This document shows, piece by piece, positions 12,101-44,170 of a DNA stretch of 56,154 bases. Positions within the stretch are counted from its first letter, which is position 1, and every line of letters starts with the position of its first letter. The notes below the pieces were generated by a model. It worked only from the letters and a program-made list of their open reading frames with translations, had not been told where the DNA came from and searched no databases. The stretch is from a virus. Its lineage: Duplodnaviria > Caudoviricetes. Location of the stretch: positions 1-56,154 of the IMG/VR virus record IMGVR_UViG_3300035322_000284; one strand, written 5' to 3'. A program made the translations under genes and the position numbers.

Positions 12101-13472
12101 AGGCAATTTTGAAACACAGACTGGTGTAATACGCTACAGCAGACTGAGTGAAAACATCTATCATGCTAGTACTGACGCCACGAGCTTTCACAGTGACAAG
12201 ATTGTAGTAAACTATGACATGAACAAAGATCATTTAGATGTGCCCATAGAGTGGACTGTGACAGACGTATTTAAGTATCCTGACGGCTACACTGATCCCT
12301 CAAAGGTAAGCGTGGCACCCAAAGACTCAGACGGTGATGGCGTGCCAGACAGACCTCTACAGTTCCATGAGTATGTGGACGATAGCAGTTTAGTATTATT
12401 TGAGTACTACAAAGATTTTGACGGCTATACCTACGAGCGTCCTTATTCGGGTGTTGTGTGGGATTTGCGTAATGAAACCAATGGTGTAAGATTTAATCCC
12501 AGCACTGTGAGCATTTCTCCAGCAAGTTATAGCAACTATCGTAAAGCTGAAGATTTAAACTGGTTGTTACTAAAAGACTTTAGTATGGTTAAGTTACAGG
12601 CCAATCCTCCAGTAGCAGGCATCAGAACCTGGCCTGGCGATGGCTTAGAAAATGACTATGGTATCTTTGGTACAATAGTTGTGTCGGTACAAGACGAATG
12701 GACTGACACCGATGCTAACATAACTTATCCTGCGGATTCCACATATGTGCTTACGCCCCTGAGTTCAAACTTAAATAAGGTCAGAGCTATCGAAACTTCA
12801 GAATATTTTGTACGCACAGGCAGAGGCAAGACCCAAGACACGAGCTCGCCCGATCCTGAAGATAGTGTGATGCGTTGGAACCATGTAGCACCCAATGATG
12901 TCAGAATCGATCCAAGTATTTCAAATGTTGTGGAGATGTGTATCCTTACAGAAAATTATTATAATAATGTGGTTAGTTGGTCAAACAACCCCACTGGGGA
13001 TTTCCCAGCTGAACCCACAAGCGCACAACTCAGCGTAAACTTTGCTAGCCTTAATCAATACAAAGCGGCATCAGATACTATTACATATCGCAGTGCGAAA
13101 TTTATTAAACTGTTTGGACCCAGCGCATCAAAAGAGTTACAGGCTGTGTTCAGAATTGTAAAACTCAGTAACCAGTATTCGGACAACGAACTCAGAAGTA
13201 GGGTACTTACTGCTATAAAACAATATTTTGATCCACAAAACTGGGAGTTTGGTGAAACATTCTTCTTTACAGAATTATCAACATATATCCACCAACAATT
13301 GGGAAGCGCAATCGGTAGTATTGTAATTTTACCTAAAAACACATCAGGAACATTTGGTGAGCTGTTTGAAGTCAAAGCAATGTCTAATGAACTTTTTATT
13401 AGTACCGCTACTGTAAACGATATTGAGATTATCAACCAGATTGATAGTCAAACATTAAGGGCTGACAGATAA
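9123..13472 (+). CDS. gp6: gp6-like baseplate wedge protein (enlarged, 1449 aa)
   Basis: YDYDTIRAAL...FNDYIESSEF...RENFLETAERRDSVFKLARMLGY; FADGNFG; ETLQAIKERAPQVYYTQDRMVNGQDY; NWEFGETFFFTEL; follows gp25 via TAATG. Confidence 0.88.
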   Translation: MSSVTRQENLFAAESWKVAYKAYQNISYQAYDYDTIRAALVEYVKINFPENFNDYIESSEFIAIIELLAYLSQSLAFRMDINTRENFLETAERRDSVFKLARMLGYTPNRNYTASGLVKVVSVKTSEPLTDSQGTDLNNLEIFWDDANNPQSYEQFISILNSAMSNVNRFTSPIKTGRVGDILTELYQLNTPVSAPIAYQYSATIAGDTKPFNIVNPDFVDNGAIFERQPNPASLFNMMYRNDGNGLASKDTGFFLAFHQGNMTYQDFNFTTAVASRTQDIQVININETDTYLQEITGSGLVKAQWVRVPNVVGQTLNYNSISKDTKNLYSIDNLDNSGIQLKFADGNFGNIPYGIYRLWYRPSDPSRYVIQPQQMSNLTITVPYVSKNGNSYNLTLKFSLQRSVNNSLPAETLQAIKERAPQVYYTQDRMVNGQDYNVFPMTLNSNIRKMKAINRTHAGHSRYIDINDPTGTYHDVDTFARDGFVYVEQRNISDRVILNDNTSALDVVTATLPTLLKDQRLNNFVYYGMRNTTGELKPDTYDLTQVGGVPANYMWNCLPFEGRSQTGFITETFSTGDPVIMSLNPTDPSQIGKNRMFQENNFIRWDNPNDPTENIWTRVVEIQNNGELVSGLNTSTGPFTLAAEVPQGWKATDSVVTIRKTFTANEATAIRNAIDNRTTFGIGYDSNPPNQDGQISDQWYVIEQPCKTCAWQPRSVDQSASWLIYMEYVPVDRFSYSYVITARGQDYVVQSQQELKFYNIKNVKVVDSYNKEGEDEIIFTTVNTKAGITETNQWQIFGATSSSGYWINQTTGYLANPGGFNPQIPLLTRSVKWYDLSVFWKSNFGLYYSDPANSVAGQSNLNVISNILHYTGPATGEALNYVADATVQLATYFDNGTNRTTNQNVVITPNSGMITSLPAFIDIPFDGTTFGGNIISLSSGNQPTITYKQFNDEGTELFVYHGGSDGAYSFGTAGITDNPQGSGIDGRLSLREGNFETQTGVIRYSRLSENIYHASTDATSFHSDKIVVNYDMNKDHLDVPIEWTVTDVFKYPDGYTDPSKVSVAPKDSDGDGVPDRPLQFHEYVDDSSLVLFEYYKDFDGYTYERPYSGVVWDLRNETNGVRFNPSTVSISPASYSNYRKAEDLNWLLLKDFSMVKLQANPPVAGIRTWPGDGLENDYGIFGTIVVSVQDEWTDTDANITYPADSTYVLTPLSSNLNKVRAIETSEYFVRTGRGKTQDTSSPDPEDSVMRWNHVAPNDVRIDPSISNVVEMCILTENYYNNVVSWSNNPTGDFPAEPTSAQLSVNFASLNQYKAASDTITYRSAKFIKLFGPSASKELQAVFRIVKLSNQYSDNELRSRVLTAIKQYFDPQNWEFGETFFFTELSTYIHQQLGSAIGSIVILPKNTSGTFGELFEVKAMSNELFISTATVNDIEIINQIDSQTLRADR

Positions 13473-16400
13473 TGGCACATTCAGGCGACGACAACCAGTA
13501 CAAACGCCTTCCCGCGGTCTTACAAACAACTGCGGTTAAAAACTTCTTTGAATATACTGTGGACCAGCTATACTCTGAAGCTAACGTTGAGACACTAAAC
13601 GGCTTTGTGGGTACACCAAATTGGGACGGTGTTCGTGCTGAAGGCGCATATATCGAAGAGCCCACCGCAACTAAGCAGGCGTATAGTTTATCACCAACTG
13701 TAAACACTATATCGCCAGAGACTGGTGAACCAGAGACTCTGATCTATTACGACGAAGTAGTAGACATATTAAAAACATATGGGGTTGATGTTCGCAATCA
13801 AAACAAATTATTTGATGCTCCATATTTTACTTTTAGTCCGCCCATTAACGAAGACAAACTTGTAAACTATTCAGAGTACTATTGGGCTCCCCCTGGCGCC
13901 AATGTTTCGCCCGCACCTATTACTATCTCAGGAACACTGGATTCCCCAGTTGACGTCGAAGATGATATTCTGGGCAAGCAATACTATGTACACTATGGTG
14001 AGACTGCTAACACAACTTTCCGTAATGGTATGGTAGTAACATTTCAGGGCGAGTACATCAACCCAGATGATTATTCAAATGTAACATTTGTTGTGGAAGG
14101 GGTTGGACATGAAATAGACTTGGTGCCATTTGAAAGAAACAGTACAGCTCCATACGATGCCAATGCTGAGCCTAACTATGTTGTCATAGAACGCGGAGCA
14201 GTAAATAACAATGGCTGGAGTCGAAATAATTATTGGTACCATGTAAACAACTGGTACGATGCTGGTGAAGTCCCGCCAGGCAGAGAATATCGCGCACAGC
14301 GACCCATCATAGAATTCAATCACAGGTTGGAGACCTTTAACCAAGGCACAAATTATCTTCAGTCCGTTGACATTGCTGTGACCACATACAACTACAATCA
14401 AGTAAATGGATTGCCAGCTAACGTTGACATCGATGGAGTTAACCCAGCAAATAAAACTATGATTTTTCCAGCCGAAGGTCCAGAACGCGCTCCTTACGTT
14501 TACCTTGGCGTTCCCTATGACACAGAAACTATTGCTGTAGCTTATGGCAATGAAGCATATCCAGGCAATGTGAGTGCTGTGTTACAAGTGGAAATTGCTG
14601 GCGAACCTGGTCAGGGCTATGTAGATAAAATTGTTGTGATTGACGAGGGCAAAGGTTATGTGCCCATGGACACTGAGATTGTAATACTCACTGACGCGCC
14701 AGTTGAACAGGACGCGCTTGCTGTGGGTACAGTTTACAAAGGTGTGGAAACTGGCACAACTAGTGTTACTATAACTAACGCTGGTTCAGGATATCAGTCT
14801 AATACTATTATTTTAAACTTTACCACTGATAAACCCACTGGTACAGAGGAACAGCCAGTAGCTATCCCTACCCTAAATGCCAACGGAGAACTCACGCAAA
14901 TTAACATTGTGACCCGTGGTGATGATTATGATTATGATGCTAACATTGGCATAGAAATTCTGGGTCCTAATAGTTCACCTGCTATTGCTACAGTAGCAGT
15001 AACAGAGAGTTATTTAAATAATGTTACTGTGGTAAATCAGGGCAAAGGTTATACACAATTTGGAAGTATTGTGTTAGAGCCAGTAGCAAACGTTAGCGTG
15101 GGCGATAGTGTACTTATTACCGAAGGCAACACTCAGACTGGTAATGAATACTATTATGCTCCCGAAGGTTGGGTTCTGGCTGACACAAAACGGTCTAGCA
15201 ATGACACACCATTGTTTGTGATGTACGATGACACTGGTACCAGACTGGACGATGATGCTAAGTATCCGCAGTCAGACTTTGCTGGCAACAAAATTTTTAG
15301 TTATGCTACTCCTGACGATATCGATGACGAACCAGCCGCAACATTAACAACAACACTGACAAAAGACCCCGTACTGGGTTTTCCATTGGTATTTAGACCA
15401 TTTAAAGCCGCATCAGAAATTGTATTCACAAACAACCTAGAGCACGACAAGTATACATATACTCCTCTGGGGTCCGAAGAGTCAGAAGATATCCTAGGCT
15501 ACAATTTTTATCACTTGCTTCCCGAAGTAGGTGAAGCCAAGGAAGATTTTTTCCCATACTGGAAACCTTCAGACAAACCATTTAACCAGGCTATTGTAAG
15601 CAGATATCCATTAAGCCAGATTGAAATAGACAGAAACATTCGTGACTTTTTTATAGGATGTGTACCTAATCCTGCTTCATATAACTTTAGTGGTGTTGAT
15701 GTCAAAATGTACCTTAACGGTAAACCGGTCAAAGGTTTCACTTTAAATACTGATGTCGAAGGATTTATTATAGTAGATGACAATGTAGTATTTGTGGCTG
15801 GCGATTATGTTGAGATAGTGGCCTACTCTGATACTGGTTTGTTAAGTTTAGAAAGCGCAAGTAAATACGAACTGCCCATTGGTTGGGATAGAAATATTTT
15901 CAAGGAAGACATACGCTTCACGTCTGAACCAGAATATCTGGAACATTTTAAAACACAGATTGAATCACAGATTGGATTTGTGGGCGAGCCCTTGGGACAG
16001 AACAACTATCAGAGCACCGCACAAGACACAAGTTACGCAACTGAAATAGTACAATCAGATTCAGATGTTATACTTGCTGGTTACCTGCTAGACGATCAAC
16101 CACACAACTTAGTTGACGCTTTAAGATTTAATGCTGGCGAATATGGCAAGTATAAAGCTCGCCTCAAAAAGACTATCAATGATTACTTTGCCTCAAATGG
16201 CATCGATGAAAATAATATTGATCGTACTTTAGAACTTATACTTCGTGAAGTTATTGCGTTCAGAGTAGGCAAGAACGTATTCAACCGAACATATGTAGTG
16301 CCATTTGGTGATAACTATTTTGAAGAGCAACAGATTGTAGGCACAAATCAGGATGAGATAATTTTAGATAGTTATCTGGATCTAAGTTTGATAGAACATA

Positions 16401-19400
16401 GTTTGTTAGTATTTGCTACAGGACAGGGTAGTTTGTTTACTGACATGTTAGTAGTAGACAGAGATTATGTCATCTCAAACTATAACCCCATAACAATTAC
16501 TCTGATAGGTGATTATTTGGGTTCTACCATTACAACAAAACTTTACACCGCAGAGCGTGACAGTGCTCAGTGCCCGCCCACACCCAGCGTGTTGGGCATC
16601 TATCCCTTGTTCCAACCAGAGATAATTTTAGACACTACCTTTGAGACGCCACAGTCTGTGTTGGTAGGACACGATGGTAGCAGGACAGCCACATACGGTG
16701 ATGCTCGTGATCAATTACTGTTAGATTTTGAACAGCGCATATATAATGCCGCTAAAAAGGAATTTCGTGAAGCCAACAGTTTACCAGAGCTTAACTTCTT
16801 TGACATCAGACCAGGTGAGTTTAGAAACACTGGATTTAGTTATGTGGAATGGTACAATCTCATGCGCTATCACTTTAGTACCTGGGCTGGTATTAATAAT
16901 GTAGACCCAATCACAAACGAATTTTATGATGCCACAGATCCCTGGACCTGGAACTACAGAGGTTATTCAGATACCTATCCAGGTAACTGGAGAGGATTGT
17001 ATGAGTACTATTACGACACAGTCAGACCACATACCCATCCCTGGGAGATGCTAGGCTTTACTGAAAAGCCATTGTGGTGGGCATCAGAGTACGGCACTGA
17101 CTATGGCAGTGGTAACGATGCCATGTGGAATGATCTGGAGTCAGGTATTATTCGTCAAGGCCCCAGAGAAAACCTAACACAAGATTTGTGGAAGTTAGAA
17201 ACTAATCCCTATGCCAGACCCTATCTGTTTGAATATTTGCCAGTCGATGCCCTGGGTGATCTAATAGAACCCAATACATTGCCCAGCGGAATCACAACAA
17301 CAAGTGTTGAGTATGAATCAGATTTTGTTAACCCATCGTTGTATCCAGTGTTTAGTGCGTCATTTATTAATACACAGATACAACCCAATGAAATTTTTCC
17401 TGGCATAGAACTTAGTGCAAGTGGTGCCAACGTCTATATAGAGAGTGCTGGTATATTAAATTATGAAGCACCTCCAGGCAGATTTGAACCACAGCCCTTT
17501 AGTGTAAATTTACCCAATGAGGTTACATTTGGTCCAAGTACTATGCCACAGGGTAACAGTTTACTCACAGGCGGTCTTGTGGGTATATCAGTAAATGGCA
17601 TAGCACTTATTAATAGCAAGTCAGGCAGAACACCAGATGCTAATAGTAATTGGAATTACAACGAAGTATTTGATGGTAAGTATGATTATATTAATCCTGG
17701 CAAGTACGATAGCAGTGGCGGTTACCAATACTATATCATACCACCCAAATTATTTGGCTGGGAGGAATTCCCTGAAAACAAACACTCGCCTATCATAGGA
17801 TGGGCTCTGGATGGTTTGCCAATCTATGGTCCCATAGGTTATGCACATTATAATGACGACGGTACAATTGCTAACAATGTTATTGTAAATATTAAATCTC
17901 CATTTAGACTTAGATCAACTAGAAATTATCCTGGCTCTCCGGGCGGCGCGCCCACAGGGCTATTTGTGGAAGATTATGAGATAGATCCAGTATTAGTAGG
18001 AACCTTGGGCTATGCGGGATCCAGACACGAATTGTATAAAATTTTACCTGGAGATGAAACTCCACCCCCAGATTATCCCAGCAACATGGGAACTCAGTTT
18101 GCTATCAGATATGGTGTAACACCAGAATCTCCAACCACTCCACAATGGTTTTATGTACAGTGTCAGGACGATGATGGTAATCCAATGTTCCCATATGCCT
18201 GTGGCGGTGGTATTCAAACTCACCCAGAACCCTTCCCAGTGGGCAACAAAAATATCTATGATAATCAATTCTTTGGTACTCCCAACGACCAAGGCGGTGT
18301 ATTCCAAGTAACTGTAACTGATTGTGGTTACGGGTATACTGGTGTAGCAGGTATTAGATTTGAGGGCGATGGGGAAAATGCGCAGGGCTACAGCACAATT
18401 AAGTCTGGCGCAATCAGAAATATTGTGGTGGTTAGCCAGGGTAAAAATTATGATTGGCAAAATACTACCATTAACATCCTGGGAGACGGCACTGGCGCGT
18501 CCTGCGAGCCCATAGTAATTGACGGCAGAATTACTGGCGTTAAAATGACAAACTTTGGTGAGGGATACACATTTGCTACTCCTATTATTAGTCAGATAGC
18601 AGGACAAGATGGCACATTCCCAGGACAGTTTGCCGAACTTACCATACCCACAGTGGCTGAAGATCCTGCCAATGGTATTGTTAACAACGCGGTTACTGAT
18701 GTCACTGTTACAAGTAGCGGCTATGGATATACATTTGTTAATGTAATTATAGAGCCCGTGGTTGGTCCACAGCCACCTGTATTAAACCCTGTGTTAGGAT
18801 TTTCAGCTCAGGCTGTGGCAACTTTAGAAACAGCTTTTGATAACAGTGTGGGTAATGGTTATGTTGACCCCAATGCTACTCCTATATTAATATCTGAAAT
18901 CATAGAAGTTATTAATGTTGACCAAGATTTAAAAAGCTCTAGCTGGAGATATTCAGACGGAGCACCAGTAGAGAATGCTTGGAAGTATTCAGAAAATTAT
19001 CCTTTTGCTGTGGCAGAAGGTTTGTTGCTGGGACAACCAGCACAGTTTGCTACACAGTTTGCTGACCCCACAAAACTGTATCGTACTGAGATCGACAGCC
19101 GTCAGCAATTGTGTACAGTTACCCGTGAGCGTTGGCAGTTTACTGATCCAGCACAATTTAGAATACACGGTGAGCGCGATACCGAAGGTAACTTCCTGAC
19201 TAACATTGGCTATACACAGTTTACAAATAGTTGGTTAGCATTCCAGGGCTTAGACACCAATATTGAGTTTGCTCCACAGATCAGAACCATTAACATGAGA
19301 TTGAGTCACCGTATGAGTGGCTATGTTGACAAAGACACCATGACGGTTAGAACTGACCAGTACAGTGCCACAGGTACTACGCCTAGTTTGATTATCCCAC

Positions 19401-22400
19401 AAGATAACATCAACATACAAATACATAGCAGTCCCTATAAGAGCAGAAACTTCTACACTGGTGTTGTGATTGAGAAGGCTGTGGGCGGTTACAAAGTCAG
19501 AGGCTATGATCGCAGTGTGGGCACATTCCCAACATTAAAGATCAATAAATTCTCAGATAGCAGAGCACTTAACGTGGGTGGCGAGCCAGCACCTTATAGT
19601 ATCTGGGAGAGAAACAACTTTTATAAAAAACTTTCTATAGTAGAGTATCGGGGAGCATATTATCAGGCCCCCAAGAACTTAACCACAGGCGCAGATTTTG
19701 ATTCCAGAATCTGGACCAGAATTCCTAGCTTACCACAAATTAATGCCGCGAGCGCAGAAGTTTGGAGTAAGTATTTAAATCAGGTTGATTTTGTGCCTTA
19801 TGAGACTTTGCTTAAAACTCCACAGGAAGTAGTAGACTTACTCATGAGCCTGGGAGCATGGCAGAAAAATGCTGGCTATGATTTTGAGGGCTTTGATTAC
19901 AACACTGGCGATACCATAGACTGGACACATGCGAGCAAACAGTTCCTGTTCTGGACTACTGGCAAATGGGAAATAGGAAACACTCTGGAGCTAAGTCCCA
20001 TGGCAGGAGGTGCTACATTTAAGGCACCCCGTGGATTTATTGCTAAACTCAACCGCATCGACAGAAATCAGTTTACAATATTGGATGCTGATGGTAGTGC
20101 TATTACCCCTGAAAGTTGTGAGATTATCAGACTTGATGATTACATACAAATTAAGCCACCAGCCGGCACACAAATATATGGCGTATTGGTGTTTGTGAAA
20201 GAAATCGAACACGCAATGACCTTAGAGAATCGCACAGACTTTAATGACATCATATATGATCCTGTGTTACACCAGTACCAGACTCGTGTTAAGATCAAGG
20301 GTAAACGTACAGCTAACTGGTCAGGTAAATTTACGTCCGAAGGATTTATCATACTGGACGACGAACTCAAGCCTAACCTAGACAACCTAGCACAGAGCAT
20401 GGGCAGATACCATGAGCTAGGATTTATCCCAGTAGAGAAGCAGGTATACGAAAGTGCCAGAGCATTGTTTGGATATCAAAGCCGTGACTACATGAGAGAC
20501 TTGGATATCCTGGATGATCAGCAGTTCGACTTCTACAAGGGCTTCCTGCAGAGCAAAGGCACCCAGACTTCCATGACGCGTATTGGTGAGTCCAATAGTA
20601 TTATTATTGACGGGCAGATCACAGTATATGACGAGTGGGCAGTAAAAGTAGGCGACTTTGGTGATGTAGAATCACAACAGGCTATTGAGTTTAAATTAGA
20701 CCGCAGTAATGTAACATCTGACCCACAGTTGGTCACAATGGTATTCCCTGAAGATGTTACTGGCGTAGTTGACCGCATTGATATCATAAACAGAAATAAT
20801 ACTTATCAGGCAACACCAGCAGTGTTTATTTCTCCTCCACTTGTAGCAAATGGATTACCTGCGCCAGGTGGCAGACAGGCTACTGCTAAAGCATACCTCA
20901 AAACTGATGGCAAGATAGATTATATTGAGGTCACTGACAAAGGCAGAGGATACGAATTCGCTACAGCAAACATTATTACCCAGGGCGATAATTCCAATGG
21001 TTCAGGCACTGATATAGAATTTACTCAGGCTGTGGCGCAGGGAGGATTATCAGATCAAGCTTGGGCAGAACAACCCATTAATGGAAACTGTTATATCAAA
21101 ACAAGCGGTTCAAGTATTACATTCAATCAAATGAAGTTGACCGATGACGGCTTTTTGTACTCCACAAGCAATGTTTCACTGTTTACTTCTAGCACTGAGC
21201 AATCCTTTGTGGTAGGCGAAACTATTACCTTTAGTGGACTATCCGGAACAGTATGTAGAGACGATAATTTAATATGTGCTAACATGGGTAACCTCAACGG
21301 TACCTGGACTATTACTGGCACAGAACAAACTTTGGCAGGTACTACTGTTGAATTTGATACTAACAATAAGGTAGGCTATGCCGCAACATATGGTGTAAAC
21401 ATTACATATACATTGGACACCCTGACAAAATTTGTGTTCGATGACGTTTACTATCATGAAGCTAATATACTAGTAACACCATTTGAGTTTGGTGGTTCAG
21501 CCATAGAAGATATCATAAACGCTGAAACTTCCAACACTGGTGTTACTGCTAGTATGTATGCTAGTCATGTACCCAATGATCGACAGCCTGGGCAAACAGG
21601 CAGTGATGTAATAGATTGGTATACTCTAATATTACGAAGCGATACTGAATTTGAACTGCTGGAAGAGACACCTAGCAATGTTTGGTCTGAACAATTCCAT
21701 ATTAACACTGGCACATATACCAATCAACAACGTTGGGCTATAGATGTTGCTTCAGGTACCCAAGCCGAAGACATAACCGTTTATGTAAACGGGCAAATTA
21801 TCGACCAGTGTAAGTATTTTGAAGTCAACTCCGAAGGTGCTGTAACAGGTAACTGTGAAGTGTACAATTGGAATTATTTGCCTGGCGGTGATTATACTGG
21901 CACAGCAAATGTGGCTCTGGTAGATCAGACACTGGTATACACTCAGGGCAACGCAAACATTGTGTTCTTAAGCACCTACGATGCCATGCCCTGGGCTCCA
22001 GCAGATTTTGACGATACTTCGTCAGGTGTGAGATTAAATAATGATTATCCATTCCTGGATTTAATGATTGGTAATATATTAATTGAACCTAGCATACTAG
22101 AATATGCCAATGTTTCAAATGTATTGACTCCAGTCTGGCGTACAGTATGGAGTGTGGACAGCACTAACCCTGGAATGATTTCAGTATACACCAAATACTT
22201 GCCTCAGAGTTTAGTAGATGCTAATACAAGTTATCTCAGGGCAGATTTGTCCATTGAGCTTTTAGAGCAATCAAGCATACAGTTTACTGAAGATTTTAAC
22301 GGTGACATCTATAACAGTAACATCAGTATTGACGTAAGTGCTGACGATGATTTGCTTGTTAAGATTGGACGTGAGCGCACATATGAAATTACCAAAGATA

Positions 22401-28636: not shown

Positions 28637-28656
28637 GTATAACAAAGGAATATATA

Positions 28657-32674: not shown

Positions 32675-32676
32675 CC

Positions 32677-32711
32677 GTAATAACATAGCACTTAATAAAA
32701 ACCGATAAATA
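32677..32711 (+). promoter_or_regulatory. Extended late promoter
   Basis: GTAAT (32677)...CACTTAAT-N7-GATAAATA (32704-32711), then 5 nt and ATG 32717; no SD. Confidence 0.75.
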
Positions 32712-32716
32712 CAGGT

Positions 32717-35700: not shown

Positions 35701-38700
35701 ACTGAATACACAATCTCCTGACCCAGAGATATTAACATATACCACTGGCGCTGGAATGAATGTTTACTCAAGCGGCAGACCCATACAAAATCCTCTGAGT
35801 GGCGGTGCTAGCGCAGTGGACGCCACAGTCAGACAAGCCATTGACTCCGGAGACTTTTCAGATTTTAATCTTAATGGATTAAAAAATACTGCGTTTACGG
35901 GCAATAGCGCAGGAGTAAATTGGCAGGATTATCTTAGCCAATTTGAAAAGTATGGTAACTACACAAGTTTTTCAAACTACCCACTGACTGGCGATGCTGA
36001 CCTTATACCGTCCAGCTTTAAAATTCGCAAGCGCAAAGTAAAAAACCCCAGTGTATATGGATTTGAACTACCGCTCAAGGACGGCAGATTTATTAATGCC
36101 ACAAGTCAGAGAGTAACTGGTGGTGCGGTTAAACCTTTGTCTAAACCACTGAATATTATTGCCAGAACTCCCAGAGCTATTAAAACATATAATGTCAGAG
36201 ACGAGGCTTATGGCAAAGTTGTGCCCACTAACCTCAACCAAACATATCGCAACACTTATTACAATCCCAGAAGCGTGGGCGCCTACTTTAGTACCAAAGG
36301 CAGACAAATACAAAACATTGGCAATACTGGATTTATTAGTAATCCTGGCTCACAGGGACCACCAGGTGGTGGTTATGTAGTAAGCTCAGGAGCAAATCAA
36401 AGTATACCTAGCACTACGCCCAGAATAGGCAGAGATCCTATCGACCAGGGTGACGGTGAAGATTACATTTTACCTGATCCCTGGCAGCCAGCAGACAGGG
36501 ACGGTAACATAACCTATGATAAGAATGGCGAGATGTCTGTAACGCCACTCAAAGTAGATGACAATGGAAATTATGTTCCTGCTGGTGAAGAGGCAAAAAT
36601 TGACCTCAGGCAGGCAACACCTGAAGCAGAATTCACAGCCTTAAAAGCGGCTAGTGTAGCAGATGGATCAGAACTTTATATCAATGACAGAAAGATTGTG
36701 TTTAAATATGGTGGTTCACTTGAAAGCATTAAGACCCAAATTAATTGTGGAAAACTTGGTGTTACAAGTGTCATAGGCGAGGATGAGGCCACAGGACAAC
36801 AAAAACTCATCATTAGTAGTTGTGATAGTTCCCCCTGGACAGTAGCAAATGGCTGTGGTGGTGGAGTATTTCAACAGGTTGGTGATTTCCATATTAACCG
36901 TGGATTTGATCAGAGTAAGTCAGTAACTAGTGTGTTTGTACCACAGAGCCAGTTGGTTGGTGAGTCGGGGCCCGATGCCAATACAGTAATTATTAATATC
37001 CCATACACTGACCAAAATTTTCCTAACACAGGCAGATTGGTAGACGTAAATTTTGATAGAAATTTGTATATTGATCCCACATATCCATCTGATGCTCCCA
37101 ACAAAACATCAGCTAAAAACTTTACAGATTTTAATGTACCAAACGGGTCAGGATTATTTTTGCCCCAGGAAACTGTTACACAGTCAACATCAGGCAAAGG
37201 TTATCAGGTAGGCGATAGACTTCGTCTAGTTGGCGGCACACCTGTAAATACTAACAAAGGTCCACTGACTGTTATCTGTATTGAGAACGCTGGCGCTGGC
37301 TATGTTGATCCTGGTAAGTTAACTGTACAAATAGGTGATGGCACAACACCAGGATTTGGTGCTGTGGCTGAAGTCTTTAGCTTGGACATGAACGGTGGTA
37401 TATCAGAAATACGTTTATTAAATTATGGCGTAGGTTATGACCCAGCTAGACCACCCGCTGTGACCATTGTTGATAAGCATAGTGATCAGGCATACCAAAA
37501 TCAAAAGATTACAAATGGTTTAAATCAGTTCGATGAAGTTATCCTGGTAGCTAATAATGTAATACGATTTGATTATCCAGAAATTGTTGAATCTAATGAC
37601 AGCACAGTGGAAGAATCCTACATACAAGTTACGCAGACTTACTATCGCGTTAGTAGCACCGTGGGAGAATCAGAACTGTTTATAGGTGGCGCTAATGAAA
37701 CAAACGATTGCCAGATGTATTACGGCGGCAGAACAGCGGACGGAAATTACCCAAGCATTAATATTAACGCTGGACAAGTTTTTGGCAATGTTACGCATAC
37801 CAGATATAAGGCAGTGGTAGGATTACCCAAGTCATTCTCAGTAAATCGCGGCCAGTACATAAGGTTTAGAAGCACAGGCTCAGGACAAAATGCTAGCATA
37901 GTGAATTCACTGCCAGAGCTTCTTTGTAGTGATCACATGATTGGTAAAGATGACAGCGGCGGCGATATCATAGCCACAAATATGCCAATAGTCAGACATC
38001 GCGCGTTACTGAATGCTAGTACAATCGATGCCATTGCGGCAGAGATGGCGACTGGGTCGGTTACAGTTAGTGTAGCAAAACCATTCTTACCAAATACAAA
38101 CGTTGGTGTATTCATACCAGTGGCTCCCTATGGTATACCCAAAGTAGAATCGGAACTCAGCGCACTCATAGGTGTGGACCCCAATAAAGTAGACGCCGAA
38201 GGTATTAATCCAGTTGACCCCTTTGTGGGAGGTTATGCTCCACTGGGCGGCCCATTGCGTGTTGCTAAGTTTCTGGTCACACAGGTTGATGCTGAGGGCG
38301 GAATTGCTGGACTTAAACTACTAGACAGAGGTTTATACAGGGTATTCCCTTCAGATCTGACATTTGGTATTCCCTTGGAGTATGACGCAGAATTATTGGG
38401 TGCGCCCACTACAGCGCAAAGAGAAGCCTCAGGACAATATGTGAGCTCAGATATCTTGGGCGGTGTTGACCCAACTCAGGATAATATACTGTATGGATTT
38501 ACTCACCCAGAATATTGGGATTCTGCTAATGAGGAACCTATTGTTCCATTCAAAGGAGCAACATTTGACGGTAAAACAGGAAGTAAACATCCTCAGTGGA
38601 TAAAGGCAAACGAATACAAACAAATCAATAAAGATGGTGAATCTGAACTTATTACTTACTGGGGTACGCCTGGCGCATACGACCCTACTACGTTGATTGT

Positions 38701-41700
38701 ACTCACAGAGGTATTACCTGACGGATCCACAGTGGAAAGGCAGATACCAAAGAATTTAGAATTAGAACTAAGCGAAGCTGGCGTACCCATTAAAGTAAAA
38801 ACTCCTGAAACTATTGCTGGTGGACAAGGTGCTAGAGTATTCCTTACCGCTACTGACGTACCAGACTGCTCAGAAGAAGGCACCGCTAAACAAGATTTGG
38901 GTCTACCAGATGTTGTGAGAGAATTGGATGGTCCCAGATCTTTTGTTAATGCGGCAAATGCTGGTCTCATAGACGTTGGTTACCAGCCTGAAGATATCAG
39001 ATGGGAAGTTGATGGCGGCAATGTTATTGCTAACGTCACACTTAATTCAGTGTTCCCTGGTGTAAGATTTAATGGTTTGGATTGGTTTGGTTTGCCCAGC
39101 GACGATTATGCGGTGGGTGCTCTGTGTATACAAGCAACACTTAGCTCGCCCAACCTTACTATAACGCAACAACAAAACGAACTAGAACGAATTTATCAGA
39201 GTTCTGACGCATTTGGAGTAAACCAAGATACATTTACTCTGCCAGACACAAATTTTCAGACACCAGTTAATAATAGTACTAGCGAAGTTAATGCCGCAGT
39301 TTTGAGTTTACTATGTATCGATGATATACAAACAGATCCTAATAGTGTGTTTGGTGATGGACCAGTGTTTGCTACTATCAAAGAACTCTATAAGTACGAT
39401 ATCAGTAATATTTTTGGTCAGGAAGTAAAATTATCTGGTAGTAAGCAAGAAGTAGATGCCTATATTTTCCAGAGCAAGAGATTTAATAATCTAGATCAGA
39501 TAGACTTGTTCAGTTATCAGGCCGATATAAATGGAAAAAGACCCTCATACATAGATATACCTGACAAACTTTGGGTGGACAGCGTTACATTAGATGACAG
39601 TCTAGCAAATATAGCAGTCAGATTCCCTGGCTTTACTCAGGGCGGCTGGGGATATTTTGAAGACGATTTTATGACTCGTTATCAGACACCCTTGGTAGAC
39701 ACCAGATATGTCCATAACAGCATCATATATGATCCAGAGTCAGGCGCTAGAACCACCGACCTATATCCCTGGGATCCATTCAAAGGCGTGTTGCCTGGCT
39801 TTATTGACAAAGAGATTGATTACATATCAGAAAATGATCCAGTAGTTTATAAAGCACAACGACATCAGTTTGGAGTAAAGCAGATTGGAGCAGTTTGGTG
39901 GGACACATCAACAATCAGATACCAGTGGTATGAGCAAGGCACTAATGTAGATCGTTGGAAAAATTGGGGCAAAGCATTTCCAGGTTCAACTGTTATAGTG
40001 TGTGAATGGGTAGAGAGCCGCGCTAAACCAGAAAACTGGTCAGGCGATGGCACCCCTAGATGGGTAAACAGATATATCACAGAAAGACGATGGGACGCAG
40101 TTAAGCAAGAGTATTCATTCTTCTACTATTACTGGGTAATGAATCGCACAACAGTTGATGCCAGACTTCGTGAGACACGAAACAGACAGTACGATACTCG
40201 CACCATAGCCAGATATCTCAGTGACCCTGTGGGCTTTGGTATCCACATGATCAGTTTCCTGAGTAACAATGCTGTGATGTTCAGCAACCTGAGTGACGTA
40301 CTCAGAGATTCAGGTAACCACGTACAGATTAATTTAAGCAGAGACCTTGACCCAGATGGTATCAAGCACACTGCCTGGAAACTTATTCGTGAGGACGATG
40401 ACAATAGCACGATACCTGACAACATCACACTCAAACTAACTGACAGTTTAGCGGCAGAAAACCAAGTAGGTGAGGTTGTACCTGATCCAGGCTTGAGTAG
40501 TGTAATGAGTTATGGTGCTGGTTTTAGACCACGCCAGAGTATGTTTGTAAACATCAAAGAGTCCAGGCGTACCATGGCATTTGTTCTTAATGAAATTTTT
40601 GCCAATCTCAAATTGTACACTGACTTCCCAACATGGGATAATAATTTCCCAAGCACTGATACCTGGCAGTATATTGAGCGCGTAAATTATTATAGTGTTA
40701 TCTATGTGGACGAGAATACCAACGAGCCAGTCAGATACGATGATAGTTACAAGCCTATCTTTAACGTAGCAACTATATCAGATCTCAATGCGCTGACTGA
40801 CTTGCCTGACGGAACTGTGGTACAAGTAGCAGGCACAGAGCTAGCTGAGCCACAGCTATGGATTTATAACGCCGAAAGCAATGACTTTAGTCAGATAGCT
40901 ATTCTTAACGACACCATAAGATTTAAGGATTCTGTATTCACTGACGACACAAACTCACAAATGAGTTTGGAGATTCGCAATGTACTCAACTTGTTTAACG
41001 ATGATCTGTTTCAGCGTTTTAACTTCTGGAACATCTTGTTCTTTGAAATGCTCAAGTATGCCTACATGGAACAACGCCAGTTGGATTGGGCATTCAAGAC
41101 AACATACTTGTATGTAGAGAAAGAAGAAGAAGATCTCATACAAATCTCAGGCTTCAAGCCAGACAACTATCAGGCTATCCTGGATTACATGGACGAAGCA
41201 AAGCCATACTCAAGTAAGGTTCGTGAGTACCGTGATGGTAAGTCTCCACCCATAGAAATCATTGGTACCATACAGCCTGGCGATGGTATACCTGGCGATG
41301 GTGACTACGACGATATCAGTAGTGGTGTGCCAGGCATACCTGGATTGCCCGGACCTGGTGAAGGTCCTGGAGATGGACCTCCGGGAGATACAAACCCCAA
41401 TGCTGGATTGCGTAGTGTGAGTGATTATGACAAGCCGCCCTACCCCGATCCAGCCACAGGAACTATCACAATATTGGATGACTTTAATCAGGCAGACCGT
41501 GAGATCATGGCAACTGATCCTGATTATGTCAATTATTTCAGTGTTACTAACAAGGCTGACGATCCCATAAGACATATTAATTTAAATCTTACATATGACA
41601 GAACAAACTGGCGGTTTACTGAGTATCTGTGGAACGCAAATACTACTTCCCTGGAACAAAGTATTAGTAATAACATTGTAAGTTTGACAACGCAGTCAGC

Positions 41701-44170
41701 CAAGCAAGTTGGGGCCAATGGTAATGTTCGTGCCATAGACAGAATATTTAAGTTTGATCCAGTTATAATTACCCAGTTTAATTTAGATGTGGAAAATAAC
41801 TATCCAGTGTTTAACGGCGCAAGCGATTACCCTTCAAATGTATATGTCAGAAGAGCAAATGATGTTTTGAGTGCTACATTTGATTTGTATAAATCCAACA
41901 AGTATGTAACATCAGGTACTGGTTGGAAAACTACTGACTGGGATCTACAGGAAGCACCATACACAGACATTGTCACAAACGTAGACGTAGTATATGACAT
42001 AGTAGAGTCAGGCAACCTTAACTTTACACTTGCTCTGCTTAAAAACAAAGTAGGTGGTGACTGGCAGGGCGAGACCCTGGACGCCAATGTGTTTACCAAG
42101 GTAGTACCTGGCGCTGATCCCACATATGACTATCAAACAATATTTGGTTATGGCACAGAAGACTATGAACAGTTTTACTGGGATGTGGTACAGGAAGTCA
42201 ACAACTATGTTGGCATCTTTAAGCCGCCACCAGAGGTCAACCTCAGGAGAAATGACAGAGACTACGACGGTTTCGACGGTATTAGTTTCCTCAGAGTATT
42301 GTATGGCGAAGAACGCCCCGAAGAATTAGTGCAGGTTGATCCATACGATCCTAACATTCTAAATGTATATACCAATACAGAAACAACACCCATACCCATA
42401 GGTGCGGCTGATGTGTGGACTAATCCACGTACTGGTATAACAGAAGTTGGATTAAACGGTAACGTTGTGGTTAACGCTGGTGGTGCGATCACACAAGTAA
42501 ATCTCAGTGATGACCTCATTGACAGAAGTTATGGCACATGTAGAGTGGTTGATATTCATGCCGTGGATACTGATGGCACTGGTAGTGGTGCTGAGTTTAG
42601 AGTAAACTTACAAACACCACCAGCTGGCTGGCCAGGTGGCGCATCATGGCCACAACTTAGCAACGTTGAAGTTGTTAGTGGGGGCACAGGATATTTTACT
42701 AGCACCACAACTGTTTATCTCACGGTGGCGCTAGCTAAGAATGCTCAACCAGTACAGTTCCAGATATTCCAGAGCTTGTTTGGACAGACAGACTATAGCA
42801 GAGTCAGAGAGCGTACATACCTCAAGGAAGACTTGTACACCTGGACTGAAGAAATTGTACTAGTTGATCCTAGCTTAGTGCCCGATCCACTGCCAGGAAA
42901 GCCTGGACTAATGTGGGTAGATGGATCAGAGCTTATTGAATATTCGCGCAAAGATCCAAACACCGGAGTTATTACGCAATTCAGACGCGGAGCCGAAGGC
43001 ACTACCATACAGGATTGGAGTGCTAATGTAGCAGTTTGGGACGGCAGTGAAGAAAGTAAATTTAATGACATTGATCCCTGGAGAAATATTTGGTTGGATC
43101 AGGGATTCAGATACGGAGCAATTTATAACTGGGACGACAACAACTACGAAGATAATGATGATTCAGGAAACATATTCATAATGAATGATGAATCAAACGT
43201 TAGTAGTATGATCAACGAAGCAAATCTTGACATACTTATAAGTGAAGTTTTGGGCGCCAATGTTGGTACTGGCTGGCAACCAGGCTGGGACTATGGTAAT
43301 ATTACTAGTATAACATGTAACGTATCAAGTATTTCCTACATAGAACAGGGCAAGGCTAGATTTACCATGGATTGTGAAATACCCAGAAATGTGGGCTTCT
43401 GTCAGATTACTACTGATTTTGCCCAGGGCGAAATAGACTTTGTAATCGACGATTCACCGTTTGGTAATGTAATTGTGTTGGAGAGCCCATTAACAAATAT
43501 TAGCATTATTGCTGAACAACTTAGTGGTGGTGGTAACGGCAATGTGATATCTAATGTACTCTTAGTACCACAAGGCAATGAGCAGTACGATGCCTATGCT
43601 ACTGTTAGAAGTAATTCATGGGTAAATGCCACAGCCACAGGTAATATTAGTATCACAGAAAACTTTACACCTGTATTGGAACCCAATGCTAATATAACCG
43701 GTTTTGCTGACATTACTGGACTAGATGTATACGGTGTAGCCAACACTATTAACAATTTTGGATTACCCACAGTATCAGCCAGAGTAGATGATGTTTGGAT
43801 GGGAGCACCAGCTCAGAGAAGAAAGTATCTCAGATTATCTGGTAGATTCTTTACTGTAAATGAAATAGATACACCAGTGTTACACATTGATACTGGTACA
43901 TACAACGCAGAATGGTTTCAGTACAACAAGGTACAAAATAACACAATTATTGTAACAGATGATTTGTGGACAAGTGAAAACCTTGTGGAGGGCATGACCA
44001 ACACCAAAGTAACATTTAATATTGATTTAAACAATATACCCTGGGATTATGCTAATGCCACAGGATTCCCAGCACTTAGCTTGGCTGACCTTGCCAACAC
44101 AGACAGCACAGACAATAACAGTATCATGAAGTTCCTACATGGTATCGATCAAGACCCAACCGAATTGTAA
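32717..44170 (+). CDS. Giant virion structural protein (3817 aa; baseplate wedge C-part-like core with long novel N-terminal region)
   Basis: C-terminal motifs WDPFKGVLPGFIDKEIDYI...WWDTSTIRYQWYEQG...FPGS...EWVES, LDWAFKT, KPYSSKVREY, ERPEELV, ELIEY...RRGAEGT; N-terminal WISxxPGG repeats and a PKD-like segment. Confidence 0.75.
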   Translation: MSNIPYNDLGSLFNSGQGQIALSNNGLNVLEIIPEEFADITDVDLNLDTFTTNLVGNPTPELCTGIVSWISTEPGGAPLTTGLLAGNINVSTSGKIDLNWALSLDPANVETTNGFGNVIYDVDYVLGYPEGDLAPGSPSVSYYLNIAYVNADCLDDYANCDLIDPTQNIYQGTCIDTKTSWAGIQTKGSKHCGSYQGAINFNSILVTKPALVWNSSTTSYYPYGSSSTELEVEANATYSTQFDFSAIGTSIVEGVIYSKNALGVSSSMVWISSTPGGEPIATTNGCEAKKIITKTGGQFTIKRAGNTANRDIDLQVLGGEILYVNVQALTTESNPVTADIGVVNSQSTRSETIRIDLQEVQEDNANVNYSAPLGARREVTPIGVASGKNTVFDFPEAGEYLISAMYTDDTGAIYNQSKTITIEPDDVEGVLNLVPRDPNYSVSSTLTRGFLGYGPAYQCKPGRYQNDERFSSIGSNFTYNGQTYNMTPNMAGCLAFNCLDNCLGTNVTGNGPNGILSRGTVDSCVANYYGTSEKSAEILNWTNPGFTDVVAEVSSDILYYPLVIPTTDLSDTKTVHATVEATGNNVLMWISTEPGGGPDGCYGFLDSYANYYSFNGQMKFYATHSNGVVQKFSKSHAQLEMGHTYYVNVARISGNIKSFINGETPTFVPNKNITVTFNGMSSWNYADTGKGTNPAGGINVSPIIDGTSSANVAVGSEVLPQSYAVSENYGICAETWDSGNTDDVGVMVTAQSRVAMPFTTTTRMYKGEINLSSGNQSFSNPEQIIAYIVDAPEKTSQSAYGKVVAATNNTTGGVELAFNVDVKVQGYDGVPSSDAVLEPFTTYYMIVENNALKTFTGQRLLTMVYDSAYGLPNTNYDLYPPWCLNSSKQNVGATAINSVPFTTPQTSRPKLGSGINCQFTDNATFNYYSLGQRFTIKGKDIICNSLIANCLSEQSNPTTQDVLRCAGIYHDSLNPDTPFRDPSYPGGLPKDSDNALNTQSPDPEILTYTTGAGMNVYSSGRPIQNPLSGGASAVDATVRQAIDSGDFSDFNLNGLKNTAFTGNSAGVNWQDYLSQFEKYGNYTSFSNYPLTGDADLIPSSFKIRKRKVKNPSVYGFELPLKDGRFINATSQRVTGGAVKPLSKPLNIIARTPRAIKTYNVRDEAYGKVVPTNLNQTYRNTYYNPRSVGAYFSTKGRQIQNIGNTGFISNPGSQGPPGGGYVVSSGANQSIPSTTPRIGRDPIDQGDGEDYILPDPWQPADRDGNITYDKNGEMSVTPLKVDDNGNYVPAGEEAKIDLRQATPEAEFTALKAASVADGSELYINDRKIVFKYGGSLESIKTQINCGKLGVTSVIGEDEATGQQKLIISSCDSSPWTVANGCGGGVFQQVGDFHINRGFDQSKSVTSVFVPQSQLVGESGPDANTVIINIPYTDQNFPNTGRLVDVNFDRNLYIDPTYPSDAPNKTSAKNFTDFNVPNGSGLFLPQETVTQSTSGKGYQVGDRLRLVGGTPVNTNKGPLTVICIENAGAGYVDPGKLTVQIGDGTTPGFGAVAEVFSLDMNGGISEIRLLNYGVGYDPARPPAVTIVDKHSDQAYQNQKITNGLNQFDEVILVANNVIRFDYPEIVESNDSTVEESYIQVTQTYYRVSSTVGESELFIGGANETNDCQMYYGGRTADGNYPSININAGQVFGNVTHTRYKAVVGLPKSFSVNRGQYIRFRSTGSGQNASIVNSLPELLCSDHMIGKDDSGGDIIATNMPIVRHRALLNASTIDAIAAEMATGSVTVSVAKPFLPNTNVGVFIPVAPYGIPKVESELSALIGVDPNKVDAEGINPVDPFVGGYAPLGGPLRVAKFLVTQVDAEGGIAGLKLLDRGLYRVFPSDLTFGIPLEYDAELLGAPTTAQREASGQYVSSDILGGVDPTQDNILYGFTHPEYWDSANEEPIVPFKGATFDGKTGSKHPQWIKANEYKQINKDGESELITYWGTPGAYDPTTLIVLTEVLPDGSTVERQIPKNLELELSEAGVPIKVKTPETIAGGQGARVFLTATDVPDCSEEGTAKQDLGLPDVVRELDGPRSFVNAANAGLIDVGYQPEDIRWEVDGGNVIANVTLNSVFPGVRFNGLDWFGLPSDDYAVGALCIQATLSSPNLTITQQQNELERIYQSSDAFGVNQDTFTLPDTNFQTPVNNSTSEVNAAVLSLLCIDDIQTDPNSVFGDGPVFATIKELYKYDISNIFGQEVKLSGSKQEVDAYIFQSKRFNNLDQIDLFSYQADINGKRPSYIDIPDKLWVDSVTLDDSLANIAVRFPGFTQGGWGYFEDDFMTRYQTPLVDTRYVHNSIIYDPESGARTTDLYPWDPFKGVLPGFIDKEIDYISENDPVVYKAQRHQFGVKQIGAVWWDTSTIRYQWYEQGTNVDRWKNWGKAFPGSTVIVCEWVESRAKPENWSGDGTPRWVNRYITERRWDAVKQEYSFFYYYWVMNRTTVDARLRETRNRQYDTRTIARYLSDPVGFGIHMISFLSNNAVMFSNLSDVLRDSGNHVQINLSRDLDPDGIKHTAWKLIREDDDNSTIPDNITLKLTDSLAAENQVGEVVPDPGLSSVMSYGAGFRPRQSMFVNIKESRRTMAFVLNEIFANLKLYTDFPTWDNNFPSTDTWQYIERVNYYSVIYVDENTNEPVRYDDSYKPIFNVATISDLNALTDLPDGTVVQVAGTELAEPQLWIYNAESNDFSQIAILNDTIRFKDSVFTDDTNSQMSLEIRNVLNLFNDDLFQRFNFWNILFFEMLKYAYMEQRQLDWAFKTTYLYVEKEEEDLIQISGFKPDNYQAILDYMDEAKPYSSKVREYRDGKSPPIEIIGTIQPGDGIPGDGDYDDISSGVPGIPGLPGPGEGPGDGPPGDTNPNAGLRSVSDYDKPPYPDPATGTITILDDFNQADREIMATDPDYVNYFSVTNKADDPIRHINLNLTYDRTNWRFTEYLWNANTTSLEQSISNNIVSLTTQSAKQVGANGNVRAIDRIFKFDPVIITQFNLDVENNYPVFNGASDYPSNVYVRRANDVLSATFDLYKSNKYVTSGTGWKTTDWDLQEAPYTDIVTNVDVVYDIVESGNLNFTLALLKNKVGGDWQGETLDANVFTKVVPGADPTYDYQTIFGYGTEDYEQFYWDVVQEVNNYVGIFKPPPEVNLRRNDRDYDGFDGISFLRVLYGEERPEELVQVDPYDPNILNVYTNTETTPIPIGAADVWTNPRTGITEVGLNGNVVVNAGGAITQVNLSDDLIDRSYGTCRVVDIHAVDTDGTGSGAEFRVNLQTPPAGWPGGASWPQLSNVEVVSGGTGYFTSTTTVYLTVALAKNAQPVQFQIFQSLFGQTDYSRVRERTYLKEDLYTWTEEIVLVDPSLVPDPLPGKPGLMWVDGSELIEYSRKDPNTGVITQFRRGAEGTTIQDWSANVAVWDGSEESKFNDIDPWRNIWLDQGFRYGAIYNWDDNNYEDNDDSGNIFIMNDESNVSSMINEANLDILISEVLGANVGTGWQPGWDYGNITSITCNVSSISYIEQGKARFTMDCEIPRNVGFCQITTDFAQGEIDFVIDDSPFGNVIVLESPLTNISIIAEQLSGGGNGNVISNVLLVPQGNEQYDAYATVRSNSWVNATATGNISITENFTPVLEPNANITGFADITGLDVYGVANTINNFGLPTVSARVDDVWMGAPAQRRKYLRLSGRFFTVNEIDTPVLHIDTGTYNAEWFQYNKVQNNTIIVTDDLWTSENLVEGMTNTKVTFNIDLNNIPWDYANATGFPALSLADLANTDSTDNNSIMKFLHGIDQDPTEL

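Follow-up and report, generated by a model that had tools for sequence, protein, structure and literature searches.

The baseplate wedge of bacteriophage T4 contains gp7, which forms the core heterotrimer (the core bundle/trifurcation unit) with two gp6 chains and whose gene stands in the order 6-7-8. In many jumbo myophages, a family gene in the T4 gene 7 position encodes one giant virion protein of ~3,000-8,000 amino acids (aa). A single gene directly after the gp6-like gene was found in each of the four cultured-phage records inspected: PA5oct gp355 (3857 aa; record note 'ESI-MS/MS', electrospray tandem mass spectrometry), Atu_ph07 gp180 (4449 aa), gene 196 of the 121Q-type phage Ecwhy_1 (3323 aa), and SCTP-2 gp140 (3807 aa). 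No solved structure or described function for the family was found in the searches made. Here we analyze IMG/VR record IMGVR_UViG_3300035322_000284 (the window, which is the whole 56,154-base contig), a fragment of an uncultured marine jumbo myophage with an estimated genome completeness (CheckV) of ~15%. In the window, the counterpart of this protein is carried by two giant open reading frames (ORFs), ORF1 and ORF2, with three smaller ORFs, m1054, m216, and m68, between them. We propose, at a probability of roughly 0.8, that the giant baseplate gene was cut collinearly into ORF1, m1054, and ORF2, that m216, m68, and a new ORF2 head were added, and that the pieces co-assemble in the wedge arm.

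A preliminary description of the window, made from its letters alone, had noticed one set of motifs in each giant ORF and supposed that both sets usually lie in one polypeptide downstream of gp6. The two ORFs and three plus-strand ORFs between them are where it placed them, as are the motifs: HTHPWEMLGF (aa 1187), DEWAVKVGDFG (aa 2387), IPNSGYV (aa 3026), and WNVY (aa 3075; nucleotide (nt) 22694) in ORF1, and SKRF (aa 2253; nt 39473) followed by KLWVD, WDPFKG, WWD, YEQG, DWAFKT, and KPY.SK.REY up to aa 2829 in ORF2. Profile phrog_10938 (3324 positions) matched ORF1 at profile positions 1052-1591 (E 2.5e-228) and ORF2 at positions 1772-2162 (E 9.8e-63). In blastp, ORF1 aa 10-302, 537-1270, and 1803-2494 matched PA5oct gp355 residues 7-297, 636-1359, and 1355-2064, with a weak further match (E 4e-5) of ORF1 aa 2960-3078 to residues 2082-2199. 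ORF2 aa 2284-2848 and 3337-3431 matched gp355 residues 2272-2825 and 3703-3796. The matches of the two ORFs on gp355 are collinear and non-overlapping, and on Atu_ph07 gp180 they fall at residues 32-1773 (ORF1) and 3184-3905 (ORF2). Hence both motif sets lie in conserved blocks (gp355 7-2199 and 2272-2825; phrog_10938), and N- and C-terminal matches that do not overlap on the same single proteins, the result proposed as a check of fission, were obtained with gp355, gp180, and phrog_10938 alike.

When ORF1 and ORF2 were compared by tblastn with 50,697 phage records, the best relatives were jumbo myophages (the PA5oct group, Atu_ph07, Phosso, SCTP-2, and Rak2/121Q-like phages), and in each phage record listed the ORF1 and ORF2 matches lay side by side on one strand. 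The phage of the window is a distant relative of PA5oct, Atu_ph07, and SCTP-2 as well as of Rak2-like phages. Records of Synechococcus phages (153) were also among the ORF1 matches. Relative to gp355 the ORF1 N-core contains an insertion of ~530 aa (aa 1270-1803; 17280-18880), within which are a YHYH domain (aa 1359-1504; Pfam E 1.9e-15) and repeats of the G-x-G-Y type common to many phage structural PHROGs; these shared units may account for the Synechococcus-phage matches.

PA5oct gp355 (YP_010678859.1) is the most informative comparison. Like its counterpart in the window, it follows gp25-like and gp6-like genes and precedes a gp357/d216-like gene, and its N-core and C-core are 30-32% identical to those of the window over about 2,000 and 560 aa, respectively. 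In contrast to the window, gp355 is one polypeptide in which only 73 aa (2199-2272) separate blocks that lie 16.7 kb apart in the window, and PA5oct is without m1054, m216, and m68 genes. Judging from its neighbors, gp355 probably corresponds to 'gp128' in the 2020 paper numbering; that paper counts gp128 among the largest PA5oct proteins (PMC7318152). Atu_ph07 gp180, Ecwhy_1/121Q-type gp196, and SCTP-2 gp140 share family and position with the window, although each is a single gene, and gp180 has its own middle insert of ~1,400 aa between the cores, which indicates that the middle is a general expansion site of the family. The features of phrog_10938 members are thus found in the window (N-core, C-core, and a gene position between gp25-like/gp6-like and gp357/d216-like genes) except that the single polypeptide is interrupted. 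Since a TAA stop (28634-28636), three ORFs, and a promoter-like box separate the cores, the window holds a split form of the phrog_10938/PA5oct gp355 family.

How usual the single gene is was seen when the ORF2 core served as a phmmer query on 1.84 billion cluster representatives (those found are given P-numbers, such as P0003), of which 1018 matched at E <= 1e-3. Among the best 150 of these, both cores were present in 115 (18 of them N-terminally truncated), as the preliminary description had expected of the family, and the C-core alone was present in 35, of which 25 begin with methionine.

Fused relatives from the nearest clade (35-58% identity, 4,893-7,914 aa: P0006, P0007, P0011, P0015, P0023, P0025, P0026, P0028-P0030, P0033, P0034, and P0036) match ORF1 over aa 7-~4447 and, further along the chain, ORF2 over aa ~1076-3466. 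Each is one open frame (for example P0006, 7020 aa; P0007, 6111 aa; P0011, 7307 aa; P0015, 7914 aa; and the complete locus L029, 5281 aa) that has no ORF2 head, m216, or m68, the exception being P0030, whose frame includes modules of the m216 and m1054 types. The ~16 kb between the two motif sets had been taken to be wholly novel, but about 10 of the 16.7 kb is middle sequence collinear with these fused relatives. Between the two shared blocks the fused proteins have a spacer, 430-1,120 aa long, and the spacers of the closer fused loci are homologous to each other. A hidden Markov model (HMM) built from 13 fused-protein spacer segments matched ORF1 aa 4592-4983 through its positions 75-430 (E 8e-21) and m1054 aa 25-83 and 428-767 through its positions 452-508 and 517-731 (whole-protein E 8e-20), and also all 11 m1054 orthologues. 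Conversely, a profile of the clade's ORF1 tails matched fused P0007 at 3731-3970 (E 1.2e-16). A local jackhmmer search with m1054, m68, the ORF1 tail, and ORF2 aa 660-1075 had given nothing beyond P0003; it was profile-to-profile comparison that then linked m1054 and the ORF1 tail to the spacer. P0005 also gave a BLAST match to m1054.

By homology, therefore, the ORF1 tail is the first half of the spacer and m1054 the second, which puts the ORF1 stop inside a formerly continuous segment. The stop sits just before a weakly PA14/GLEYA-like domain of m1054. We read m1054 as a detached piece of the ancestral middle, into which ~345 aa have been inserted between the two spacer-matching stretches and which ends in an m216-type module. 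The three intervening genes are thus not simply extra, as they had seemed: m1054 corresponds to the second spacer half, and m216-type modules occur within fused P0030 and at the N-terminus of P0005. The occurrence of both module types in P0030, and of m216-type modules in P0005, ties m1054 and m216 to the giant protein. What looks clade-specific comes to ~2,000 aa (~6 kb) and comprises the m1054 insertion and C-terminal part, m216, m68, and ORF2 aa 1-1075. Altogether the pieces total 10,209 aa, and the largest fused protein among the best 150 representatives has 7,914 aa.

Other instances of the split were found in IMG/VR. Exact ORF2-core peptide patterns retrieved no close relatives there, and an ORF2+P0003 alignment found only two weak loci (L006 and L007). 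A scan with a 10-sequence alignment (A2) gave 28 loci having 10 kb of upstream sequence, some of which are near-duplicates, so that the counts below are not independent. One frame runs from ORF1-like into ORF2-like sequence in 21 of the 28 (L029 being complete and L018 having one in-frame stop elsewhere), and three (L015, L016, and L024) end too early to judge. The remaining four (L017, L034, L020, and L031) are split, always within the interval that corresponds to ORF1 aa ~4450 through ORF2 aa ~1080. The arrangement is thus not confined to this contig: its clade has conserved it, and that hot spot is also where further clades are split. Their junctions differ. In L017 and L034 the halves adjoin, with GATAAATA, a Shine-Dalgarno (SD) sequence, and a TTG start; the N-half retains the spacer, and the C-half begins with a 585-aa head of its own. 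The halves of L031 also adjoin, with only AAGGAG ahead of the ATG; in L020 they are separated by the spacer, which forms a 638-aa gene.

A tree of the C-core (66 rows; IQ-TREE, LG+G4, quick search) was rooted on five fused PA5oct-like rows. The window and P0003, P0004, and P0005 form an all-split clade (Shimodaira-Hasegawa-like approximate likelihood ratio test support 99) that neighbors fused P0007. On this tree at least six changes of the split label are required, three of them forced by well-supported branches, and the grouping of the six split rows verified by context into one clade is rejected by the approximately unbiased (AU) test (p = 0.004). These results argue for more than one origin of the split across the wider group. 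Fused forms make up all five outgroup rows and every deep branch, and, given this rooting, fission is the derived state, as the preliminary description had surmised.

The best-surviving rival holds that a two-gene or multi-gene state is ancestral and that single giant genes arose by fusion. It could point to how often C-only proteins occur in the nearest clade (they make up about half of the first 30 representatives) and to the presence of both fusion and fission nearby. In five related loci m1054 and an m216-like part form one frame of 1,120-1,370 aa, in others they are separate genes, and L041 has no m216 gene; fusion and fission thus continue within the m1054/m216 cassette. However, the fused outgroups and deep branches, the 115/150 fused representatives, and the four fused cultured lineages all run against an ancestral split, and junction structures that differ between split clades are easier to explain by separate cuts. 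We consider this rival improbable.

A shade less probable still is the view that m1054, m216, m68, and the ORF2 head entered as a foreign cassette and broke an intact gene, the intervening genes being unrelated passengers. In its favor, nothing in the fused spacers corresponds to m216, m68, or ORF2 aa 660-1075, and m216-type modules stand at differing positions in P0005, P0027, and P0030, as expected of shuffled modules. These modules occur three times in the ORF2 head, once in the m1054 C-terminal part, four times in P0005 (in its head/N-terminus), and twice each in P0027 and fused P0030. The cassette does not account for an ORF1 tail and m1054 that are homologous to the two spacer halves, in order. 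Moreover, no integrase, transposase, or homing-endonuclease family matched ORF1, m1054, m216, m68, or ORF2 (Pfam and PHROG), composition is uniform across the region (G+C fraction 0.39-0.44), and other clades are split without any cassette.

The added modules have characters of their own. An AlphaFold2 (AF2) model of m216 (predicted local distance difference test score (pLDDT) 85; predicted template modeling score 0.85) predicts a free-standing β-sandwich (jelly-roll) module, and the module motif is W-x-S-x-x-P-G-G (alignment A3). Its fold matches are generic (best Foldseek PDB match E 8.6e-4 with template modeling scores <= 0.33; best VIA Z 7.0); the best BFVD match was an uncharacterized Caudovirales protein (E 4e-5), and ESM Atlas gave no usable match. 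Blastp among the window ORFs gave only self matches at E 1e-3 and Tandem Repeats Finder gave 0 rows for the window, the m216-type repeats being seen solely with a permissive search plus jackhmmer. Pfam searches of ten sub-pieces of the middle, head, and cores found no family and only sub-threshold Flagellin_IN. For m1054, Pfam GLEYA scored 31.1 bits over the whole protein versus a 26.2 cut-off although no single stretch passed (weak signal at aa 44-78), and PA14 scored 20.7 versus a cut-off of 24; ESM Atlas PA14 clusters at 0.87-0.88 are below 0.9 and serve as a lead only. As a lead, PA14-like and β-sandwich modules suggest binding to surface polysaccharide.

Counterparts of the ORF2 head were found only in P0003 and in loci L036-L049 (described below), and none in fused relatives. 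The junction pieces are 3-4 times richer in cysteine than the rest, and several cysteines are invariant in the head alignment. The ORF1 end had been described as a long low-complexity, cysteine-containing tail, which is partly apt: there are 16 glycines in its last 54 aa and 9 cysteines in the 605 residues of aa 4450-5054, versus 18 in the first 4449 aa. Of the two free termini said to display accessory domain arrays, the ORF2 N-terminus does so with its 1075-aa clade-specific head, whereas the ORF1 C-terminus has only ~70 new residues. The small m68 protein is 61-97% identical across 14/14 related loci, with 20 invariant columns, and is always directly upstream of ORF2; this high conservation and fixed place suggest an assembly partner. 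A complex prediction of m68 with ORF2 aa 1-300 scored 0.18 versus a mark of 0.32.

A third rival, that the pieces are joined in expression into one polypeptide by stop-codon readthrough, frameshifting, bypass, or protein splicing, we regard as very improbable. The ORFs are indeed tightly packed on one strand (gaps ORF1/m1054/m216/m68/ORF2 of 20, -1, -4, and 42 nt). However, the ORF1-m1054 gap is 15-60 nt in relatives, with an SD-like AGGA 8-10 nt before each m1054 ATG, no intein or recoding signal was seen, and the m68-ORF2 gap contains a conserved promoter-like box. The box, TTAAT-N6-7-GATAAATA, occurs four times in the window versus 0.02 expected, and 0/100 shuffles reached four, so that what had been postulated as a new late promoter does exist as a motif. 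Each of the four copies stands on the plus strand 5-6 nt ahead of an ATG, and the genes that follow them are the first structural gene, the gp25-like gene, ORF2, and d216; any late transcripts would be almost leaderless given this spacing. Upstream of ORF2, GATAAATAC is invariant in 15/15 contigs while the ORF2 protein has diverged to 54% identity. The box resembles the T4 late promoter, TATAAATA. As a side observation, the box at 8727-8745 lies 6 nt before an in-frame ATG at 8752, and box positions suggest that the first structural gene and the gp25-like gene start at ATGs 1057 and 8752 rather than at 1036 and 8746. ATAAATA occurs 7 times in the window versus 17 expected, always in intergenic DNA. 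Further copies lie at 55690-55696 and, on the minus strand, at 1002-1008 and 8696-8702, both minus-strand copies facing divergent genes. Since m1054 has no such box and ORF2 has one, ORF1, m1054, m216, and m68 would be translationally chained on the wedge operon and ORF2 could also be transcribed alone. A sigma-70 and terminator scan of 28000-33200 was at chance level, and no RNA run was among those listed as holding the junction stretch. The PA5oct record has a late sigma factor encoded in the giant-gene region, and the PA5oct paper reports AT-rich TATAATA motifs (PMC7318152).

Conservation of the layout was assessed in Joint Genome Institute (JGI) metagenome contigs scanned with the ORF2+P0003 alignment, which gave 14 loci (L036-L049; ORF2 identity 54-96%). 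In all 14 the ORF2 homologue begins at query residue 1-6, directly behind an m68 homologue, and 12 reach an m1054 homologue. The eight loci that extend to ORF1 (L036, L039, L042, L043, L045, L046, L047, and L049) all have the ORF1 tail (49-85% identity), a stop, and then m1054. Within the clade the C-core is 84-90%, the shared middle 63-72%, and the ORF2 head 51-69% identical, and the head is thus conserved rather than hypervariable. A 7-kb junction stretch recurs nearly word for word in 20 runs from six studies (seawater, marine, and sponge metagenomes), which indicates a phage lineage widespread in the sea. Near-identical copies of the 24500-36500 stretch are present in runs X1-X20. Logan contigs from three studies beyond the best holder bridge both junctions: one X6 contig spans 24500-34492 unbroken, and X4 and X13 contigs bridge the ORF1 stop and the ORF2 start. 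Their only length differences from the window are 3 and 18 nt, which keep the frame. Although the window is a metagenome-assembled contig and some relatives have single breaks, an assembly or sequencing artefact or a private pseudogene is excluded by the same architecture in 14 independent contigs, the bridging contigs of other studies, and the conservation of all pieces as open frames. The single breaks are in-frame stops in L018 (1025-1027, in the N-core) and in the L043 ORF2 homologue (15611-15613) and a frameshift in L040 (~7013-7037); these may be sequencing errors, or young breaks able to seed fission.

Table 1 Coordinates of the giant baseplate-protein pieces and neighboring features of the window (nt positions in the window unless a locus is named)
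Feature	Position	Strand	Basis or comment
gp25-like baseplate wedge gene	8746..9123	+	Pfam GPW_gp25 E 2.8e-13; begins wedge module
gp6-like baseplate wedge gene, 1449 aa	9123..13472	+	phrog_10646 E 0; phrog_219 E 2.8e-21; 36-39% identity to PA5oct gp354
ORF1, 5054 aa, N-half of giant gp7-position baseplate protein	13472..28636	+	phrog_10938, tblastn, blastp
Family-wide N-core, ORF1 aa 10-2494	13499..20953	+	blastp to gp355 7-2064 and Atu_ph07 gp180 32-1773
Shared middle of ORF1, aa ~2600-4450	21272..26821	+	ORF1 2662-4449 in frame with ORF2-like sequence in P0006, P0011, P0015, L008-L014, and others
Last family-wide block of ORF1, aa 2960-3078 (IPNSGYV...WNVY)	22349..22705	+	gp355 2082-2199; also in fused relatives
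ORF1 tail, aa 4592-4983, putative first half of ancestral spacer	27245..28420	+	spacer HMM
New ORF1 C-terminal end, ~70 aa, Gly-rich with Cys, TAA stop	28421..28636	+	composition; stop, then SD-like AGGA and m1054 ATG in 8/8
m1054, 1054 aa	28657..31821	+	spacer HMM
m216, 216 aa	31821..32471	+	AF2 model, alignment A3
m68, 68 aa	32468..32674	+	present in 14/14 related loci
ORF2 box TTAATAAAAACCGATAAATA	32692..32711	+	5 nt before ORF2 ATG
ORF2, 3817 aa, C-half of giant protein	32717..44170	+	phrog_10938, tblastn, blastp
Clade-specific ORF2 head, aa 1-1075	32717..35941	+	m216-type modules at aa 55-103 (weak), 233-330, and 572-655; 18 Cys
Shared middle of ORF2, aa 1076-2239	35942..39433	+	collinear with fused relatives
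Family-wide C-core, ORF2 aa 2240-2848	39434..41260	+	phrog_10938 1772-2162; gp355 2272-2825
d216, 216 aa	44205..44855	+	40% identity to PA5oct gp357; 39% to Atu_ph07 gp177; 57-94% in related loci
Promoter-like boxes	1033-1051, 8727-8745, 32692-32711, 44180-44199	+	TTAAT-N6-7-GATAAATA
m1054/m216 as a single frame	L039 5799-9734; L042 6003-9755; L043 5638-9756; L049 2351-6127; L040 1-3366

By analogy with T4, where gp7 is encoded immediately after the gp6 homologue as ORF1 is after the gp6-like gene (the latter ends at 13472), the ORF1-type giant protein is presumably a wedge component partnering gp6, although the giant proteins here are 3-10 times longer than T4 gp7. Phmmer against PDB chains gave 0 matches; any relationship of sequence to gp7 would be a remote one. 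The model of ORF1 aa 1-360 was poor (pLDDT 57; best VIA Z 3.5), and Foldseek found nothing at E <= 1e-3.

Several points weigh against our reading of a repeatedly cut wedge protein. The split group for the AU test was named after the tree had been seen, the tree covers the C-core region only, and recombination could mimic repeated fission. The 25 C-only representatives that begin with methionine could yet be contig-end fragments, and the core of P0012 is identical to that of fused L028. No gp7 family was among the Pfam/PHROG matches, so that gene position is what suggests membership in the gp7 family. The carbohydrate-binding idea draws on a weak GLEYA/PA14 signal and a generic β-sandwich fold, and the late-promoter reading would hold by analogy with the T4 late promoter. 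Finally, the split arm is known here from its genes, from which incorporation, stoichiometry, and contacts of the pieces are presumed.

With these points in mind, we read the collinear cutting of the giant gene as follows. ORF1 comprises the N-core, the shared middle, and the first spacer half, m1054 the second spacer half in expanded form, and ORF2 the rest of the middle, the C-core, and the C-terminal part. Between m1054 and the old ORF2 sequence ~1,360 aa were added (m216, m68, and the 1075-aa Cys-rich head). ORF1 would be anchored beside the gp6-like protein through its N-core, and ORF2, with its C-core next to d216 and the fibre genes, would be held by what were formerly intramolecular contacts, such that all the pieces still build one wedge arm. 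The PA14-like and β-sandwich modules would be exposed decorations that bind surfaces. If the middle is a string of autonomous domains, it could be cut between domains without loss of assembly, which would explain why one boundary has been cut repeatedly; in the clade of the window, elaboration of the cut ends has been on the ORF2 side. With separate genes the longest product would be shorter and a very long chain easier to synthesize, the amounts of the pieces could differ, and modules could be exchanged singly. A more ambitious version remains tentative and on balance doubtful: at least three fissions at one domain boundary, pieces that each time acquired start signals of their own, with a late promoter as well in two clades, an arm that outgrew any single chain (10,209 versus <=7,914 aa), and m68 as a new assembly adaptor tying the ORF2 head to the arm.

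On the plus strand the genes surrounding these pieces are ordered hub/lysozyme-like, gp25-like, gp6-like, ORF1, m1054, m216, m68, ORF2, d216, and fibre-like genes. The gp6-like gene overlaps the ORF1 start at 13472 (ATGA-type), and d216 comes after the giant gene in every relative. The 987-aa hub/lysozyme-like ORF (4668-7631; DUF2345, phrog_13211) has a TTG start and a 98-nt overlap with the preceding ORF (2285-4765), and its real start probably lies further downstream. Residues 28-46 of d216 resemble the 42-aa Atu_ph07 gp179 (L002 7816-7944) and residues 30-213 resemble gp177 (L002 6510-7106); in PA5oct a 41-aa gene, gp356, precedes gp357. The gene after the giant one may thus be split too in some phages. 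Several of the fibre-like genes have an N-terminal domain in common. Among them, d830 ends in a Peptidase_S74 chaperone domain, and its aa 1-84 match the N-termini of PA5oct gp358 and gp359 (blastp). Two or three d830-like N-termini are present per relative locus downstream of d216, and d1915 (in the fibre-like region 44866-55675) has an LCCL domain. From these sequences the fibre-like genes seem to form a set of several fibres that dock on a common platform.

That genes of phage structural modules undergo fission is known. The novelty lies in the particular case, a giant wedge protein with one hot spot at which it has been cut repeatedly, in the window into three to five conserved pieces that have their own promoter-like box. 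In the portions available to us of the literature on jumbo-phage baseplates, phage gene fission, and Rak2 baseplates (including PMC6102473, PMC7318152, and PMC9700779), no split form of the giant protein is described. Proteins of this family are the largest genes of many jumbo phages, and the series of fused, two-, three-, and five-piece forms shows where autonomous units begin and end and sets the indispensable parts (the two cores and d216) apart from the exchangeable ones (the decorations). The split pieces give structural biologists tractable fragments to express, and the series provides a concrete test of whether protein length limits virion evolution. It is also a warning for annotation, in that 'hypothetical' genes between two large structural ORFs may be detached pieces of a baseplate protein.

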